From IMG/VR virus record IMGVR_UViG_2724679238_000010: DNA of 4,510 nucleotides; one strand, given 5' to 3'. The position numbers were made by a program, and so were the translations under genes. The notes below the pieces were generated by a model. The model was not told the origin of the DNA. It saw nothing but the letters and a program-made list of their open reading frames with translations, and did no database searches. The DNA comes from a virus (taxonomy: Duplodnaviria > Heunggongvirae > Uroviricota > Caudoviricetes). Positions 372 through 4,510 of this stretch are shown here, piece by piece. Each line of letters begins with the position of its first letter. The first letter of the stretch is position 1.

Positions 372-1349
372 TTACCCCCTGAACCCCGGAGGAATTTCGG
401 TGTCCGGTTCAGAAATATGATTCACACAACGCTGTACAGGTGAACGCCCCAGGCGGATGACCAGTTCGTCCCATTTTTCGCGGAGCTTTGACGGGCTCAT
501 GATGTTTTTTACCCAGAATGGATCCCGCTGTACCCGCCCAAACATTTCGCAAATTTGTCTGTGAGTTCTGCCATCCAGCATCCGCATTGTGCGCACGTCA
601 TTGGCCCACGCGGTCCAGTTTGGTTCTTTCGGTCGCGTGATCTCGCCATCATCGCTGGCCGCCTGCTCGTAAAGACTCACGATTCGTCCCCAGATCCACT
701 GTGCGCACGCCAAATCTTCCTGACTTCCCCACTGGCGTTTTTTCGCACTGAACACAACCGCATCAGGGTGTCGGGTTAAAAAATCCTGTTCAGCCGTCTG
801 CGGGTCCGGTTGCGAAGCGTCCGGACAAGAAGATCTTTTATCTGATGGATCAGATTTTAATACTGACGGATCGGGGTCAATCATCGCCCCCCTAACCGAC
901 CGTTTTTTATCAACGGTTGATCCATCAAAATTTGACGGGTCAACCGTTGAGGGGGCAATATTTGACGGGTCAACCGTTGAGGGGTCAATATTTGACGGGT
1001 CATTTTTGGCCGGGCTAATTTTTCTTTTCGGTTTATATGCCTCTCGCGCCGCCGCTGCTGCAGCTTCGAGTTTTTCCACATTAAGCCGGTAGATATTGCT
1101 TACGTTACGTCCGCCAACCTTACGCTCTTCCTTTGTCAGCCAGCCGCTCTTTTCCAGTTCCGCTATCGCCGCTTTAACCGTTGATTCACTCTTTGCCCCA
1201 ATCTGACGACGAATGGTCTCTACTGCAGGCCATGACACACCTTCATCATTGCTGTAGTCTGCAAGACGAGCCATCACTGCCACCCTGGATAAGATCATGC
1301 CGGTGAAGGCACACCCTTCCCAGACAAGACCATGAAGCTTGCTGCTCAT
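372..1349 (-). CDS. phage replication initiation protein, lambda O-like (N-terminal winged-HTH domain, repeat-encoded linker, C-terminal domain)
   Basis: 325-aa ORF with ATG at 1347..1349 and a GGGG SD-like run 6 nt upstream. The N-terminal segment (GMILSRVAVMARLADYSNDEGVSWPAVETIRRQIGAKSESTVKAAIAELEKSGWLTKEE) looks like the winged-HTH of phage replication initiators. The middle is a 10-aa peptide repeat (DPSNIDPSTV / DPSNIAPSTV / DPSNFDGSTV) encoded by 30-bp DNA iterons. It lies immediately upstream of the DnaC-like loader gene. Family assignment is from recalled features, not a search. Confidence 0.85.
   Translation of the reverse strand: MSSKLHGLVWEGCAFTGMILSRVAVMARLADYSNDEGVSWPAVETIRRQIGAKSESTVKAAIAELEKSGWLTKEERKVGGRNVSNIYRLNVEKLEAAAAAAREAYKPKRKISPAKNDPSNIDPSTVDPSNIAPSTVDPSNFDGSTVDKKRSVRGAMIDPDPSVLKSDPSDKRSSCPDASQPDPQTAEQDFLTRHPDAVVFSAKKRQWGSQEDLACAQWIWGRIVSLYEQAASDDGEITRPKEPNWTAWANDVRTMRMLDGRTHRQICEMFGRVQRDPFWVKNIMSPSKLREKWDELVIRLGRSPVQRCVNHISEPDTEIPPGFRG
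909..1003. repeat. putative replication origin iterons inside the initiator gene: 30-bp tandem direct repeats with internal dyads
   Basis: Seen directly: 927..956 aaaatttgacgggtcaaccgttgagggggc; 957..986 aatatttgacgggtcaaccgttgaggggtc (28/30 identical); 987..1002 aatatttgacgggtca (truncated third copy). Each unit holds overlapping palindromes TTGAC-GG-GTCAA and TCAAC-C-GTTGA. An inverted relative, TCAACGGTTGA, sits at 910..920. A more AT-rich stretch follows at 1003..1040. The layout resembles lambda ori inside gene O. Confidence 0.6.
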
Positions 1350-1372: not shown

Positions 1373-1798
1373 TTAGTGCATCACCACGGCATTTCCTGCC
1401 GGGCCACCGCGATTAATCTGGTTGAAACCAGCAATTGCCACCGCAATAAAATCATCTGCATCCCTCACCAGCCGCTCCCGCGTCTCCAGCAGCTCCCGAA
1501 AATAGGCTGAACTGTGACTGCGCATTCGGGCCACCAGCAGAGGCGGCATTGCCTTTTCGATCGCTGGTAACAACGCCTGAATTTTTTTAACCGCATCAGG
1601 GGTGTCTTTCTCCACCCAGCGGAAAATTTTCTGAGTATTGCGAGCCAGGGCTTCAGGATGGCTGTCGTCATATAATTCCGGGAACGTCATACCCAGCTCA
1701 AAATAAGCCCGGGTTATTTCAGCCGCCGGAACTTTTTCACCGTCCGGATGCGCCCAGGCATTCATCACCATGCGGATGTGCTCATGCTTGATTATCAT
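1373..1798 (-). CDS. ydaT: YdaT-like protein (CII-like regulator, toxic on overexpression in Rac-type prophages)
   Basis: 141-aa ORF, ATG at 1796..1798, with AGGAG SD (rc of 1807..1811) 8 nt upstream. The protein (MIIKHEHIRMVMNAWAHPDGEKVPAAEITRAYFELGMTFPELYDDSHPEALARNTQKIF...) matches my recollection of the E. coli YdaT family. It sits directly downstream of the cro-like gene. Symbol is from recalled similarity plus synteny. Confidence 0.8.
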   Translation of the reverse strand: MIIKHEHIRMVMNAWAHPDGEKVPAAEITRAYFELGMTFPELYDDSHPEALARNTQKIFRWVEKDTPDAVKKIQALLPAIEKAMPPLLVARMRSHSSAYFRELLETRERLVRDADDFIAVAIAGFNQINRGGPAGNAVVMH

Positions 1799-2063
1799 GA
1801 ATCAAGCTCCTGGAAAGTGGTTGTGTTAACGTTTTGGTATCTTCCAGCTCGGGCCAAATATTCATCCAATCAAAAGGCCTTAGTTGCTGACGTGTAACTT
1901 CACCATTACTGGCTCGCTCAATAAGGACACATAACGATGCCCCTAACACTTGACCTTTACTCAATGCCTTTCTTAGATAACCGATGCTAGTACCACACTC
2001 ACATGCAAACATACGCTGTTCATCTGACGAAAGAGAATTGAGAAATATTCTTAATTCTTCCAT
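1782..2063 (-). CDS. ydaS: YdaS-like Cro-type HTH transcriptional regulator
   Basis: 93-aa ORF, ATG at 2061..2063, with AAGGAG SD (rc of 2069..2074) 5 nt upstream. The segment GTSIGYLRKALSKGQVLGASLCVLIERASNGEVTRQQLRPFDW fits the YdaS/Cro-like family pattern (ERA..GEV...LRP.DW). It is the first gene of the operon divergent from the repressor and overlaps ydaT by 17 nt. Confidence 0.8.
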   Translation of the reverse strand: MEELRIFLNSLSSDEQRMFACECGTSIGYLRKALSKGQVLGASLCVLIERASNGEVTRQQLRPFDWMNIWPELEDTKTLTQPLSRSLIHDNQA

Positions 2064-2081: not shown

Positions 2082-2172
2082 TACGGTCAAGAATACCCAC
2101 AGGTAAACAAAAGTCAATACCTATGGGTTGTTTACCTTGCGGTAATCGCATCTATTATTTACCTATGGACAA
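2082..2172. promoter_or_regulatory. divergent promoter/operator region between the cro-like gene and the repressor gene
   Basis: Three copies of a dyad motif: O1 2093..2106 ATACCCACAGGTAA; O2 2117..2130 ATACCTATGGGTTG; O3 2159..2172 TTACCTATGGACAA. O1 and O2 are 24 bp centre to centre. Leftward promoter candidate: -35 TTGACT (rc of 2112..2117), 16-bp spacer, -10 TATTCT (rc of 2090..2095). Rightward promoter candidate: -35 TTTACC 2131..2136, 16-bp spacer, -10 TATTAT 2153..2158, ending 6 nt before ATG 2165. Confidence 0.5.
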
Positions 2173-2584
2173 ATATGAATTTAGACGACAGCAACTCATC
2201 AAAATTCGTGATGAGAAATGCGATGGTAAAGCGGTTAACGTGGCCAGAAAGATCGGTCGCGAGCCTTCTTATGTATCAAGAATGTTGTACCCAGAGGGGA
2301 AAAAAGGAAAAAAACGGATCGCTGATGATATGGTGGAGATTATCGAAGAGTCCTTTGGGTTACCCCGGGGATGGATGGATGGTATCGTTTCATCATCAAC
2401 GAACACAGCCTCCAATTATGAAACAAGGGTTCTAACGCCACGACAACGTATTTTTTTAGATCTCTTAGACGAACTGCCAGAAAGTGAAACGGATAACTTA
2501 TTAAAAACTCTTGAAGAGAAAAAACAGTATTACAATATGATCTACGAAGAAATCCGTAAAAAGAAAGCACAAAACGCGTCATAA
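2165..2584 (+). CDS. racR: prophage repressor, RacR-like (possibly a leaderless transcript); alternative start at 2123
   Basis: 139 aa from ATG 2165 (MDKYEFRRQQLIKIRDEKCDGKAVNVARKIGREPSYVSRMLYPEGKKGKKRIADDMVEIIEESFGLPRGWMD...). A helix-turn-helix-like segment sits near the N-terminus. The gene is divergent from the ydaS-ydaT pair, which is the position of racR in Rac. No SD precedes either candidate ATG, and the predicted -10 lies immediately upstream of 2165. Symbol rests on synteny plus a recalled, unverified resemblance. Confidence 0.65.
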   Translation: MDKYEFRRQQLIKIRDEKCDGKAVNVARKIGREPSYVSRMLYPEGKKGKKRIADDMVEIIEESFGLPRGWMDGIVSSSTNTASNYETRVLTPRQRIFLDLLDELPESETDNLLKTLEEKKQYYNMIYEEIRKKKAQNAS

Positions 2585-2625: not shown

Positions 2626-2664
2626 TTACCCATAGGTATTTACTTTTTGAATACCTATGGGTAT
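2626..2664. promoter_or_regulatory. operator-like dyad pair 3' of the repressor gene (OL analogue); may also form a hairpin
   Basis: 2626..2639 TTACCCATAGGTAT and 2651..2664 ATACCTATGGGTAT, 25 bp centre to centre, the same motif as in the divergent promoter region. ACCCATAGGTAT and ATACCTATGGGT are reverse complements, giving a 12-bp stem with an 11-nt loop followed by a T-rich tract (atcctttatttc). Confidence 0.45.
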
Positions 2665-2846: not shown

Positions 2847-2999
2847 ATGGATACTATCGATCTTGGCAACAACGAATCTCTGGTGTGCGGCGTGTTCCCA
2901 AACCAAGACGGTACGTTCACCGCAATGACGTATACCAAAAGCAAAACGCTTAAAACCGAATCTGGCGCGCGTCGCTGGTTAGCCAGAAACACTGACTGA
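2847..2999 (+). CDS. small prophage protein, about 50 aa (YdaF/YdfA-like small protein family suspected); alternative start at 2769
   Basis: ATG at 2847 with GAGG (2837..2840) 6 nt upstream. Protein MDTIDLGNNESLVCGVFPNQDGTFTAMTYTKSKTLKTESGARRWLARNTD. Size and position next to the repressor match the small ydaF/ydfA-type genes of Rac/Qin-like prophages. Family assignment is from memory and is tentative. Confidence 0.5.
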   Translation: MDTIDLGNNESLVCGVFPNQDGTFTAMTYTKSKTLKTESGARRWLARNTD

Positions 3000-3376
3000 T
3001 GAGGCTGACGATGGAATTTAAAGATTTACCGTCTGATGTACAGAAAACAGCAGCTCATACATTGCATTCTGTGCTGCGAGAAATCGGGAAAGATATTGCA
3101 AGCGAGCCAGCAAAAGATCTGGCCCGGAAAATCAAGACCGCTTTCGTTGAGCTTTATAATGTTGGCACTGACTCTGAAACTGTCGAGACCAAGACCGTAA
3201 GTTCACCAATATTCTCACTTGAGCCAGGCGTATTATCAGGTGAAATATGCACCGAGATTTCCAGCGAACTGCTTCCGGTAATACGAGAAACAATTTGCCG
3301 TCGCGGTTTGGATGGAAGTTACGATCATGACGTCCTGCAAGTTCTCAGGACAATGGTGACTTCACTGGGGATTTGA
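2999..3376 (+). CDS. hypothetical prophage early protein (125 aa; alternative start 3011 gives 121 aa)
   Basis: ATG 2999 overlaps the TGA stop of the upstream gene by 1 nt (TGATG), suggesting translational coupling. ATG 3011 has its own GAGG SD (3001..3004) 6 nt upstream. No recognisable domain by eye. Confidence 0.55.
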   Translation: MRLTMEFKDLPSDVQKTAAHTLHSVLREIGKDIASEPAKDLARKIKTAFVELYNVGTDSETVETKTVSSPIFSLEPGVLSGEICTEISSELLPVIRETICRRGLDGSYDHDVLQVLRTMVTSLGI

Positions 3377-3545
3377 TCCCTGCGTCCTCTAACCTTTTGA
3401 TATAGCGGTCCTCCAAGAAGCGGTAAATTTTGTCGAAATCATCTTTCCCCTCTGATTTATTCAGAGGATTACAGGACCCGTAAGTAGCGGCATACATTTC
3501 AACCGTTTTATCAAAAATATAAGAGACAAATTCTTCTTTAGTCAT
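3345..3545 (-). CDS. hypothetical small protein, 66 aa, charged and soluble-looking
   Basis: ATG at 3543..3545 (rc) with AAGAAGGA SD (rc of 3553..3560) 7 nt upstream. Protein MTKEEFVSYIFDKTVEMYAATYGSCNPLNKSEGKDDFDKIYRFLEDRYIKRLEDAGIKSPVKSPLS. The track ORF extends to a GTG at 3630..3632, but that start lacks an SD. The 3' end overlaps the convergent gene 2999..3376 by 32 bp. Confidence 0.45.
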   Translation of the reverse strand: MTKEEFVSYIFDKTVEMYAATYGSCNPLNKSEGKDDFDKIYRFLEDRYIKRLEDAGIKSPVKSPLS

Positions 3546-3882
3546 ATAGATTTCCTTCTTGGTTATTCGGGATAAGAAGGATACCACCTCGCCTGACGTG
3601 GTTAAAAGCAGGCACACAACACGAAAGCGCACGGCGAAGTTCGTCTCACTGTACGGTGTCGTTAAATTTAATTCGACCGTGCGCTTCCGGTTGTGGCAAC
3701 CCGCGAAATGGCGCGGCGGTAAGTATGGCGGGGTTATTCCTTCCCCGTTGAGGACACCGGGTTGTCAGGTTGACCATACGCTTAAGTGACAACCCCGCTG
3801 CAACGCCCTATGTTATCAATTTTCTGGTGACGTTTGGCGGTATCAGTTTTACTCCGTGACTGCTCTGCCGCCCTTTTTAAAG

Positions 3883-4030
3883 TGAATTTTGTGATGCGGT
3901 GAATGCGGCTAAGCGCACGCGGAACAGTTAAAACCAAAAACAGTGTTATGGGTGGATTCTCTGTATCCGGCGTTAATTGTTAACTGGTTAACGTCACCTG
4001 GAGGCACCAGGCACCGCATCACAAAATTCA
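3883..4030. repeat. perfect 19-bp inverted repeat pair enclosing 110 bp with GTTAAC dyads
   Basis: 3883..3901 tgaattttgtgatgcggtg is the exact reverse complement of 4012..4030 caccgcatcacaaaattca. The enclosed region holds GTTAAC-TG-GTTAAC (3979..3992) within cgttaa...ttaacg (3971..3993). The right arm ends 5 nt before the SD of the 4048 gene. Confidence 0.7.
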
Positions 4031-4047
4031 TTGTTGAGGACGCGATA

Positions 4048-4236
4048 ATGGAAACGTTATTACCAAACGTTAATACGTCTGAAGGTTGTTTTGAAATTGG
4101 TGTCAGAATCAGTAACTCTGCATTTACTGAAGATGCCATTAACAAGAGAAAACACGAACGGGAGTTATTAAATAAAATATGCATTCTTTCAATGCTGGCA
4201 CGTTTACGCCCGATGCAAAAAGGATGCTGGCAATGA
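4048..4236 (+). CDS. hypothetical small protein, 62 aa
   Basis: ATG 4048 with GAGGA SD (4036..4040) 7 nt upstream. Protein METLLPNVNTSEGCFEIGVRISNSAFTEDAINKRKHERELLNKICILSMLARLRPMQKGCWQ. Its stop TGA (4234..4236) overlaps an in-frame ATG (4233..4235) of the next ORF. The track ORF starts at a GTG (3943) lying inside the inverted-repeat region, which I consider non-coding. Confidence 0.4.
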   Translation: METLLPNVNTSEGCFEIGVRISNSAFTEDAINKRKHERELLNKICILSMLARLRPMQKGCWQ

Positions 4237-4436
4237 ATACAGCAATTGCTCTCACTCTGATAGTTTTTCTTAATACGGGCGAGCCTGTTGACCCGGTTAT
4301 TGACATTTACGGTTCAATGAAAGAATGCACGGCTGCCGCAGCGGAACAGAAAACTCCCGGTAACTGTTATCCGGTCGATAAAGTTATTCATATGGACAAT
4401 AACGAAATCCCGGCAGGACTTAAAACAGCACCGTAA
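4179..4436 (+). CDS. hypothetical small protein with signal-peptide-like or membrane-anchor N-terminus (85 aa; alternative start 4233 gives 67 aa)
   Basis: ORF MHSFNAGTFTPDAKRMLAMNTAIALTLIVFLNTGEPVDPVIDIYGSMKECTAAAAEQKTPGNCYPVDKVIHMDNNEIPAGLKTAP. Basic residues (KR) precede a hydrophobic stretch (AIALTLIVFL), followed by a polar region with two Cys. Start is ambiguous: ATG 4179 has only a distant GGAG; ATG 4233 has AAAAAGG 9 nt upstream and forms an ATGA overlap with the preceding ORF. Confidence 0.45.
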   Translation: MHSFNAGTFTPDAKRMLAMNTAIALTLIVFLNTGEPVDPVIDIYGSMKECTAAAAEQKTPGNCYPVDKVIHMDNNEIPAGLKTAP

Positions 4437-4510
4437 TTAATATCCGGTTTCATTTTTATATGCCAGCAATGGCAGGGATTTGTTCACCCTTAAATCTGTA
4501 ATGAGGTTAA

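Follow-up and report, generated by a model that had tools for sequence, protein, structure and literature searches.

The dicBF locus of the Qin prophage in Escherichia coli K-12 has been studied for decades through its elements DicF, DicB and YdfD (PMC10448788, PMC6832061, PMC5069750, PMC8835842). DicB and DicF stop cells from dividing; DicB also excludes phages that need ManYZ, and YdfD causes lysis (PMC10448788, PMC6832061, PMC8835842). Division inhibition by K-12 DicB depends on MinC and its phage exclusion on ManYZ (PMC6832061, PMC10448788). A 190-nt DicF species is produced in an RNase III-dependent manner in K-12 (PMC10448788), and K-12 YdfD has two conserved cysteines, binds IspG and causes division-dependent lysis (PMC8835842).

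We analysed a stretch of viral DNA of 4,510 nucleotides (the window; position 1 is its first nucleotide), in which an earlier note had flagged the block 3345-4436 as a candidate uncharacterised exclusion, kil or defence module. The block belongs to a lambdoid prophage, in its early-left (pL-type) operon. What it contains is very probably the distal half of an operon of the Qin dicBF type, with an embedded, counter-oriented and portable unit around a 66-aa gene, p66. Most of the block is the known and well-studied dicF-dicB-ydfD module for division inhibition, phage exclusion and lysis. The new element is modest: a small, real gene, p66, which sits reversed in a swappable cargo slot just upstream of dicF. 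The relevant features are as follows.

2165-2584: repressor gene
2627-2663, plus strand: two TACC-N4-GGTA sites that form the left operator pair, shortly after the repressor gene
2847-2999, plus strand: ydfA (DUF1391), first operon gene (Pfam 1.9e-28)
3011-3376, plus strand: p121, 121-aa mosaic protein (PHROG 33007)
3345-3545, minus strand: p66, 66 aa, against the operon (PHROG 34441; WP_000159335.1 'hypothetical protein')
3576-3612, minus strand: conserved 37-nt element, putative cargo-gene promoter on an extended -10 reading
3618-3693, plus strand: long, imperfectly paired stem-loop lying at the 5' boundary of the segment in common with K-12
3822-3874, plus strand: DicF small RNA, 53 nt, with a Rho-independent terminator hairpin and U-tract (Rfam RF00039)
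3881-4032, plus strand: structured spacer between dicF and dicB, also the 5'UTR of dicB; three hairpins within a closing helix of 21 bp
4048-4236, plus strand: dicB, 62 aa (Pfam PF05358 1.6e-36; RefSeq agrees)
4233-4436, plus strand: ydfD (DUF1482, PF07358), 67 aa, lysis protein by K-12 analogy (Pfam 3.7e-16)

From about 3617 to 4510, the window aligns with K-12 Qin without a gap, and the non-coding part is ~99% identical. Part of the block is matched in 4,737 of 5,426 complete E. coli genomes, where RefSeq annotates dicB and ydfD. DicB scored 124.3 bits against Pfam PF05358 (cut-off 27, positions 1-62 of 62) and 130 bits against NCBIfam NF049927 (cut-off 100), and it is 85% identical to K-12 DicB, with 9 of its 62 residues differing. 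YdfD reached 59.2 bits against Pfam DUF1482 (gathering score 25), matched PHROG 1092 over its full length and is 65% identical to K-12 YdfD from residue 1, with differences at 22 of 63 residues. The earlier note had described an overlapping pair of small ORFs of 62 and 85 aa. The 62-aa ORF at 4048-4236 stands, whereas the '85-aa' ORF (4179-4436) had been over-extended: RefSeq at a 97.5%-identical locus, PHROG 1092 and the alignment with K-12 YdfD all place the start of ydfD at the ATG at 4233, giving 67 aa. The overlap with dicB is therefore the 4-nt ATGA (4233-4236), as in K-12, and not 58 nt. The signal-peptide-like N-terminus and the two cysteines noticed in this ORF are both genuine, as YdfD begins with a hydrophobic segment and its cysteines, at residues 32 and 45 of 67, are the conserved YdfD pair. 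By analogy with experiments at the near-identical K-12 locus, DicF, DicB and YdfD may be assigned the same functions here, and the substitutions in DicB (9/62) and YdfD (22/63) leave room for differences in how strongly or how specifically the two act.

These identifications decide most of what had been proposed for the block. DicF, DicB and DUF1482/YdfD all exceed curated thresholds, which overturns the view that no recognisable domain is present, and the label 'uncharacterised' does not hold, with three of the four elements known from Qin. The guess from position was well placed: the early-left operon does carry a division inhibitor and phage excluder, DicB. Homology to the Rac genes kilR, ydaE, racC or sieB had been named as grounds for dropping the proposal. 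We found clear homology to known prophage genes, but to those of Qin; the Pfam, NCBIfam and PHROG scans showed no homology to the four listed Rac genes and returned only DicB, DUF1482, DUF1391 and unnamed PHROGs. The features that had been described are confirmed, and their overall interpretation is partly supported. For the block, the gain is a correct annotation, as a DicF/DicB/YdfD module able to halt host division, alter sugar metabolism, lyse cells and keep out phages that depend on ManYZ.

The upstream part of the operon fits the same assignment. Four perfect TACC-N4-GGTA sites occur in the window (2094, 2133, 2627 and 2652), compared with 0.03 expected, and the operator layout near the repressor gene matches that of dicA-dicBp in K-12 (cf. 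PMC10448788). The region 2627-2663 should thus be equivalent to the dicBp/pL control region, with a putative promoter at the start of the operon. YdfA, encoded by the first operon gene, is 90% identical to K-12 YdfA. The infective phage mEp460 has the same arrangement as the window.

Between p66 and dicB, the region 3546-4047 contains no supported ORF, in agreement with the earlier description of about 500 bp lacking a credible ORF and dense in dyads. The fold of 3600-4060 has a free energy of -181 kcal/mol, compared with a mean of -144.6 for shuffled sequences (z = -5.9; none of 100 shuffles as low), and among the repeats of the region are a long-range inverted one, perfect over 19 bp (3883-3901/4012-4030), and one of 13 bp (3622-3634/3677-3689). 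Other ORFs listed in 3546-4047 (76, 48, 51 and 91 aa, and a GTG-extended 97-aa dicB) were treated as chance because RefSeq lacks them and they overlap the DicF precursor, which is ~99% conserved as RNA. This dyad-rich stretch is the precursor of the DicF small RNA, which is processed. DicF itself scored 76.7 bits against Rfam RF00039 (gathering score 48, E = 2.5e-16, model positions 1-52 of 52), and 3822-3874 has zero mismatches with K-12 dicF, including the target-pairing regions. Its terminator hairpin folds as expected, and its surroundings are those of the family: it lies upstream of dicB in early-left synteny, with a terminator hairpin at its 3' end and an RNase III-type stem upstream. 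This stem, at 3618-3693, folds at -30.3 kcal/mol (z = -3.7), and all 18 pairs are conserved across 15 variants, in which the changes are G-U-compatible or, rarely, pair-breaking. Those 15 variants contain no compensatory or double changes, and this conservation could accordingly reflect structure or primary-sequence constraint, which the sequence alone cannot separate. The stem is probably the RNase III substrate that gives the 5' end of the ~190-nt DicF precursor; this end is predicted near 3685, a cut in the 3' arm of the stem derived from the 190-nt length. Downstream of DicF, the spacer at 3881-4032 also folds better than shuffled sequences (z = -5.7), its closing helix is kept in 16 variants, and one inner hairpin has four compensatory pairs. 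The sRNA family STnc100 (Rfam RF02076), which is associated with prophages and related to PasD (bioRxiv 10.64898/2026.05.13.724894), aligns with its full 206-position model to 3871-4080 and has a similar multi-hairpin architecture. Its 39.1 bits are below the gathering threshold of 47 and do not amount to membership, and the spacer differs from STnc100, a free-standing sRNA gene, in being the 5'UTR of dicB.

From these elements and the published processing and functions (PMC10448788, PMC6832061, PMC8835842), the following course of events can be proposed. Once the left operators (2627-2663) are free of the repressor (2165-2584), transcription would produce a polycistronic RNA that spans ydfA, the p121 gene, the DicF precursor, dicB and ydfD. 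RNase III would cleave the stem at 3618-3693 to release the ~190-nt precursor, and trimming by RNase E would yield the 53-nt DicF, which would end at its own terminator hairpin and pair with its targets, the ftsZ, manX, xylR and pykA mRNAs. RNA that reads through would continue into the structured spacer and then be translated into DicB. DicB would bring MinC to midcell so that no Z-ring forms, and would bar DNA entry of ManYZ-dependent phages. YdfD, translationally coupled to DicB, would bind IspG and lyse dividing cells. The p66 gene would be transcribed independently of this operon, probably in the lysogen, as moron-type cargo. The portable unit would be made up of the p66 gene and, at 3576-3612, its putative promoter of the extended -10 type, with the two-helix segment at the C-terminus of p121 as the constant partner.

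The convergent 66-aa gene that had been pointed out at 3345-3545 on the minus strand does exist. An AAGGA Shine-Dalgarno sequence lies 7 nt ahead of its ATG, and its reading frame of 201 nt runs into the 3' end of the 121-aa ORF over the final 32 nt. Against homologues of 54-71% identity, dN/dS is 0.11-0.28. Among divergent homologues, pS is near saturation (0.61-0.72) and pN is 0.17-0.32, and in two shifted frames used as wrong-frame controls, pS and pN are about equal. The gene keeps its length, start and Shine-Dalgarno sequence from one context to the next, and this extends to Cedecea and to a remote homologue of 73 aa. Judged by these substitution patterns, p66 is a real protein-coding gene under purifying selection. 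Within E. coli, the polymorphism of p66 is sparse, with too few events to tell reading frames apart, as for the three cargo ORFs of the slot described below. The AF2 model of p66 is a two-helix hairpin (pLDDT 83.5). The HMM and structure searches that had been proposed for the 66-, 62- and 85-aa ORFs identified DicB and YdfD, but gave no informative sequence or fold match for p66: no Pfam, NCBIfam or PADLOC match was above threshold, and Foldseek against PDB and BFVD returned nothing at E<1, a search that is uninformative because a two-helix hairpin is too generic to place. Among 1.84 billion representatives, searched exhaustively by profile, 13 matched, all of them members of the same small family or repetitive long proteins. 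Assignments to Zn_ribbon_16 (E = 0.038) and BrxL_N (E = 0.091) were rejected with Pfam scores far below threshold; p66 contains no CxxC motifs and shares no BLASTP similarity with the zinc-ribbon cargo protein ECs_2282. No relevant paper was found in the literature for WP_000159335 and ECs2282. The PADLOC-DB 2.0 scan of p66, p121, DicB, YdfD and YdfA gave no match at E<=0.01. The exclusion activity of DicB is known from experiment, not from the PADLOC-DB 2.0 library.

Upstream of p66 lies the conserved 37-nt element. On the minus strand, it contains an extended -10 sequence, TGgTATCCT (about 3586-3578), a weak -35 and an ACCAC-N9-GTGGT dyad. A stretch of 31 nt in it is 100% identical in at least 120 IMG/VR contigs, and the 40-nt query tail that holds it was matched in about 2,064 of 5,426 complete E. 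coli genomes (~38%). The core of the element, GGTGGTATCCTT, is also retained in front of divergent p66 genes that lack a neighbouring dicF. Folded as RNA, neither strand did better than shuffled sequences (z = -0.4 and -0.5), so an RNA-structure reading was rejected and a signal at the DNA level is favoured. The element is thus a putative promoter of the counter-oriented cargo gene, as read from its motifs. A simple sigma-70 consensus scan did not report it because the -35 is weak. Beyond 3345, the minus strand shows nothing resembling a terminator, and p66 lacks an intrinsic terminator of its own. In K-12, which lacks the 37-nt element, examination of the sense strand found no internal promoter in the operon (PMC10448788).

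Loci with different cargo cease to be homologous exactly at the 3' edge of the -10 hexamer, and the three cargo ORFs begin at a fixed spacing of 33-35 nt from the element. The slot holds one of at least three unrelated counter-oriented genes, namely those for the helical hairpin p66, for a 66-aa zinc-ribbon protein and for a putative 106-aa membrane protein. Among the matches listed, 117 loci were retrieved by pattern, and 113 of them could be called: 55 have the membrane ORF, 34 the zinc-ribbon protein, 23 p66 and 1 another gene; the left flank was too short in the remaining 4. The expectation that the block is swapped as a cassette therefore holds for the p66 slot, where unrelated genes follow a shared element, and not for the rest of the block. 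Alternative unrelated genes in the same slot of related phages are a mark of morons, and p66 shows it. The cargo genes are small, unstudied, interchangeable and easily tested; if expressed in lysogens, they would be candidate prophage-host interaction factors or a safety device for a toxic operon.

The neighbouring p121 is a mosaic. Its residues 1-50 are common to proteins with differing C-termini, and residues ~77-121 always accompany the p66 gene. The AF2 model, of low confidence (pLDDT 56), has four helices forming two hairpins with a disordered linker between them, and was left out of the fold search because of this pLDDT. The p66 gene and the C-terminal segment of p121 form a convergent, 3'-overlapping pair in four phage contexts, including that of the remote homologue: after ydfA in E. 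coli, after an S24 repressor gene (loci L005 and L006), after cro in Cedecea and after a repressor gene in locus L070. Protein identity of the pair drops to ~20-57% across these contexts, and the divergent p66 copies always face against an early operon.

Several other explanations must be weighed against a dicBF operon with an embedded p66 unit. It is highly improbable that the entire block is an undescribed lineage-specific exclusion, kil or defence system, even if the early-left slot is a site of lambdoid host-interaction genes and p66 and p121 belong to no named family: three of the four elements pass the curated DicF, DicB and YdfD thresholds, the DNA is ~99% identical to the K-12 locus, and no protein of the block matches PADLOC defence models. 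For 3617-4436, an undescribed system is refuted by the family scores and the K-12 alignment. Another possibility is that the p66 ORF is no gene and owes its conservation to the sense-strand operon RNA or to the overlapping p121 gene. Its antisense position within the operon, the PGAP label of merely 'hypothetical protein' and a polymorphism within E. coli too sparse to reveal coding constraint would all accord with this, but the contrast of pS and pN in the p66 frame, which disappears in the shifted frames, and the constancy of length, start and Shine-Dalgarno sequence as far as Cedecea and the 73-aa remote homologue speak for a gene. With just 32 of 201 nt overlapping the p121 gene, we consider this explanation extremely improbable.

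What the slot does may also be read in other ways. The putative promoter at 3576-3612, and not the cargo, could be what matters: opposing transcription that collides with leaky dicBp transcripts, or RNA antisense to them, would silence the toxic DicF, DicB and YdfD in lysogens. In favour of this, the element is identical whatever the cargo, in E. coli it always directly precedes the toxic genes of the operon and points against them, and the divergent p66 copies are always opposed to an early operon. However, the purifying selection on p66 implies that the protein itself matters, K-12 dicBF is silent without an intact element, and O157:H7-type loci have ydfC between the element and dicF, which together make this reading very unlikely. 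Alternatively, p66 and the C-terminal segment of p121 could be a two-component pair, such as a toxin and its antidote or an exclusion system, in which the hairpins bind each other and the complementary mRNA 3' ends couple expression. The conservation of the convergent 3'-overlapping unit in four contexts despite the low identity suggests such a link, as do the two-helix hairpins predicted for both parts and the exchangeable N-terminal half of p121. We regard it as unlikely: the p121 model is of low confidence, the two proteins have no homology to toxin, antitoxin or defence families, the co-conservation could stem from a recombination boundary inside p121, and the other two cargo types have no comparable partner. 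It is likewise doubtful that, within a counter-oriented slot of Qin-type prophages driven by one invariant promoter element, p66 and the C-terminal hairpin of p121 constitute a new two-part system expressed in lysogens, perhaps for phage exclusion or for restraint of dicF, dicB and ydfD. The preferred reading is a Qin-type dicBF operon in which p66 is portable cargo.

Morons of lambdoid phages, for example lambda bor, are opposed to the late operon and expressed in lysogens. Similarly, p66 is small, lies between conserved operon genes and is opposed to them; the 37-nt element may serve as its own promoter. It differs from typical morons in being paired with part of the neighbouring sense-strand p121 gene, and no terminator was found after it. 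Kil-type inhibitors are small early-left, repressor-controlled proteins that block FtsZ-ring formation upon derepression. DicB resembles lambda Kil and Rac KilR in being such a blocker (for the DicB mechanism, PMC10448788), although its sequence has no relationship to either. Unlike them, DicB acts via MinC and is teamed with the DicF sRNA, which also targets ftsZ mRNA. The closest described system is the dicBF operon of K-12 Qin (ydfABC-dicF-dicB-ydfDE), which occupies the same site downstream of the immunity region, has the order ydfA ... dicF-dicB-ydfD and shares identical gene spacing and the 4-nt ATGA overlap of dicB and ydfD with the window. The immunity type differs, as the repressor and cro-like genes of the window have no Pfam match and show weak similarity to the DicA C-terminus only. 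Where Qin has ydfB and ydfC, the window has the 121-aa gene and the counter-oriented p66 gene with its upstream 37-nt element. Finally, Qin is a defective prophage, whereas the prophage type of the window appears intact because the infective phage mEp460 shares its layout.

The block at 3345-4436, which the earlier note had put forward as a candidate uncharacterised exclusion, kil or defence module, is the well-known dicF-dicB-ydfD module, an identification that already explains the finding in its stated form. The guessed class, kil or exclusion, was right because the K-12 literature describes DicF and DicB as blocking division and DicB as conferring phage resistance; only "uncharacterised" has to be dropped. 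Profile searches identify DicB and DUF1482/YdfD in the 62- and 85-aa proteins, in which no domain had been recognised by eye. Of this overlapping pair, the 62-aa ORF had been delimited correctly, whereas the start of the 85-aa ORF had been placed too far upstream; the supported start is the ATG at 4233, giving 67 aa and overlapping the stop of the 62-aa ORF as ATGA.

2847-2999, plus strand: YdfA (DUF1391; Pfam)
3822-3873, plus strand: DicF sRNA (Rfam, full length, 76.7 bits against a gathering score of 48)
4048-4236, plus strand: DicB, 62 aa (Pfam 1.6e-36; NCBIfam 130 bits against a cut-off of 100)
4233-4436, plus strand: YdfD (DUF1482), 67 aa (Pfam)

The window is collinear with the Qin prophage of E. 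coli K-12 and nearly identical to it from about 3617 to the window end. The non-coding part (3617-4047) is about 99% identical and DicF is identical, while the proteins share 85% (DicB), 65% (YdfD) and 90% (YdfA) identity. Judged by these identities, conservation within the module is highest in the RNA, comprising the DicF precursor and the spacer, compared with the adjacent DicB and YdfD. Part of the block is matched in 4,737 of 5,426 complete E. coli genomes, where RefSeq annotates dicB and ydfD, and this gene layout recurs in the sequenced phage mEp460, flanked there by the repressor and the exo-xis-int genes. In the deposited mEp460 annotation (LR597641), dicB is extended to a GTG start and 94 aa, a 51-aa ORF is called within the DicF spacer, and DicF is left unannotated; both ORFs look like over-calls. 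Bins labelled Veillonella parvula and Geobacteraceae also carry an E. coli-type prophage region (89-98% protein identity), most likely by binning contamination.

In K-12, repressor-controlled transcription of the dicBF operon starts at dicBp, an internal sense-strand promoter was not found, and DicF is excised from the polycistronic RNA by RNase III, yielding a 190-nt species, and RNase E, yielding a 53-nt species; DicF represses ftsZ and several metabolic mRNAs (PMC10448788). DicB recruits MinC, which blocks division, and confers about 100-fold resistance to lambda and other ManYZ-dependent phages (PMC10448788, PMC6832061). YdfD, which binds IspG, causes lysis of dividing cells, an effect that DicB counteracts (PMC8835842). 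A length of 190 nt measured back from the 3' end of DicF would put RNase III cleavage near 3685, within the 3' arm of a predicted stem at 3618-3693 (fold z = -3.7), all 18 pairs of which are kept, without compensatory changes, across 15 sequence variants. The ORF-free structured stretch described earlier is borne out: 3546-4047 contains no supported ORF and folds with z = -5.9 against shuffled sequence. A perfect long-range inverted repeat of 19 bp (3883-3901/4012-4030) lies within it, as does a second one of 13 bp (3622-3634/3677-3689). Beyond the terminator hairpin of DicF, the spacer at 3881-4032 forms a multi-hairpin fold (z = -5.7) closed by a 21-bp helix, which is conserved in 16 variants, and one inner hairpin has four compensatory pairs. 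Several related loci have the spacer core replaced by unrelated sequence and keep the closing helix and two hairpins. Against the prophage sRNA family STnc100 of Rfam, 3871-4080 gave a full-length but sub-threshold match (39.1 against 47 bits). Some viral contigs (L055, L056, L069) have the spacer in two or three partial copies between the 66-aa gene and dicB, suggesting that this structured segment was duplicated or rearranged locally.

The convergent 66-aa ORF (p66; 3345-3545, minus strand) is present as described, with a good Shine-Dalgarno sequence, and it is the one protein in which the absence of a recognisable domain held up in Pfam, NCBIfam and PADLOC searches. It belongs to PHROG 34441 (unknown function) and is labelled "hypothetical protein" in RefSeq. 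It is a real gene: its dN/dS is 0.11-0.28 against homologues 54-71% identical, with synonymous sites near saturation, whereas pS and pN are about equal in the two shifted frames. The AlphaFold2 model is a two-helix hairpin (pLDDT 83.5), for which Foldseek against PDB and BFVD returned nothing informative. The family is tiny, with 13 matches in an exhaustive search, all enterobacterial; full-length p66 occurs in 390 of the 5,426 complete E. coli genomes.

At every locus examined, p66 faces a gene whose product is related to the C-terminal ~45 residues of p121 (121 aa; 3011-3376, plus strand), and these two convergent genes overlap at their 3' ends. In E. coli-type loci the pair lies between ydfA and dicF, in L005 and L006 it follows an S24 repressor and dicF is absent, and in Cedecea it lies between cro and cII. 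Even a remote 73-aa p66 homologue (locus L070) is paired, with weak partner similarity (18% identity to p121 in the alignment). Residues ~77-121 of p121 recur only beside p66, and residues 1-50 are also found in proteins of Enterobacter, Serratia and others whose C-termini are unrelated, so p121 is a mosaic; its structure model is of low confidence. This co-conservation may reflect either a physical partnership or a recombination boundary.

Between p66 and the DicF precursor, a 37-nt element (3576-3612) is conserved far beyond p66, in about 2,064 of 5,426 E. coli genomes, and its 31-nt exact core in at least 120 IMG/VR contigs. Its minus strand reads like a putative extended -10 promoter (TGgTATCCT) whose -35 is weak, and it includes an ACCAC-N9-GTGGT dyad. 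Where the neighbouring genes differ, homology among loci stops exactly at the -10 hexamer, and three unrelated counter-oriented ORFs start 33-35 nt from the element.

Cargo 1: p66, 66 aa, window 3345-3545, minus strand
Cargo 2: 66-aa CxxC zinc-ribbon protein, ECs_2282 family (NCBIfam NF047912), in O157:H7 and others
Cargo 3: 106-aa putative membrane ORF, unannotated in RefSeq

Among the matches listed, 117 loci were retrieved by the element alone, and four with too little left flank were left out; the remaining 113 carry the membrane ORF (55, the commonest occupant), the zinc-ribbon protein (34), p66 (23) or another cargo (1). In E. coli O157:H7 SS17 the zinc-ribbon gene lies at 2267-2467 (minus strand) of L072, and O157:H7-type prophages have a relBE toxin-antitoxin pair upstream and ydfC between the element and dicF. 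The membrane ORF, at 2147-2467 (minus strand) of L073 from E. coli AR_0006 and in about 55 IMG/VR loci, had no match in Pfam, PHROG or NCBIfam, and polymorphism data do not discriminate between coding and non-coding for this candidate. Divergent 66-aa genes at loci lacking dicF are likewise preceded by the core GGTGGTATCCTT, so the element goes with the cargo rather than with DicF. RNA folding of the element is not significant; the simple promoter scan of the window did not list its putative promoter, and the terminator scan found none after p66. Together, element and cargo would constitute a moron-like slot with a shared putative promoter. The residual novelty is modest: the unstudied p66 and its partner segment, which occupy a counter-oriented, swappable slot within a toxic operon. 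We consider it rather unlikely that the slot houses a small-protein system expressed in the lysogen or a safety device based on convergent transcription, either of which, if true, would be of moderate interest.

As a whole, the window represents the immunity and early region of a prophage of lambdoid type, and the dicF-dicB-ydfD block sits on the plus strand within the leftward operon, after the repressor.

372-1349, minus strand: O-like replication gene with probable internal iterons (HTH_36)
1373-1798, minus strand: YdaT-like gene (Pfam YdaT match)
1782-2063, minus strand: Cro/YdaS-like gene (Pfam YdaS match)
2094-2105 and 2133-2144: TACC-N4-GGTA sites, right pair, between cro and repressor
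2165-2584, plus strand: repressor (PHROG 5736)
2627-2638 and 2652-2663: TACC-N4-GGTA sites, left pair, directly after the repressor

Tandem 15/30-nt repeats (TCAACnnTTGACGGG-like) at 925-1002, inside the O-like gene, are probably origin iterons. The cro-like gene and the one following it (1373-2063) have Pfam matches to the "toxin" families YdaS and YdaT, names that derive from a proposed toxin-antitoxin pair of Rac; in the window they occupy the position of cro and a cII-like gene. The repressor has zero Pfam domain matches, and its matches are limited to PHROG 5736 and, weakly, NCBIfam DicA (C-terminal part). MB06234, the best E. coli match for the block, carries a different, LexA-family repressor at the same place, and the immunity module has therefore been swapped relative to the dicBF module. 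Chance alone would give 0.03 perfect TACC-N4-GGTA sites; the four observed are probably the operators, right and left, for this immunity type. The left pair makes a 16-bp hairpin, which the scan scored as a terminator. Such bracketing of the repressor by putative operators is the OR/OL layout of lambda and, likewise, that of dicC-dicA-dicBp in K-12 Qin (PMC10448788).
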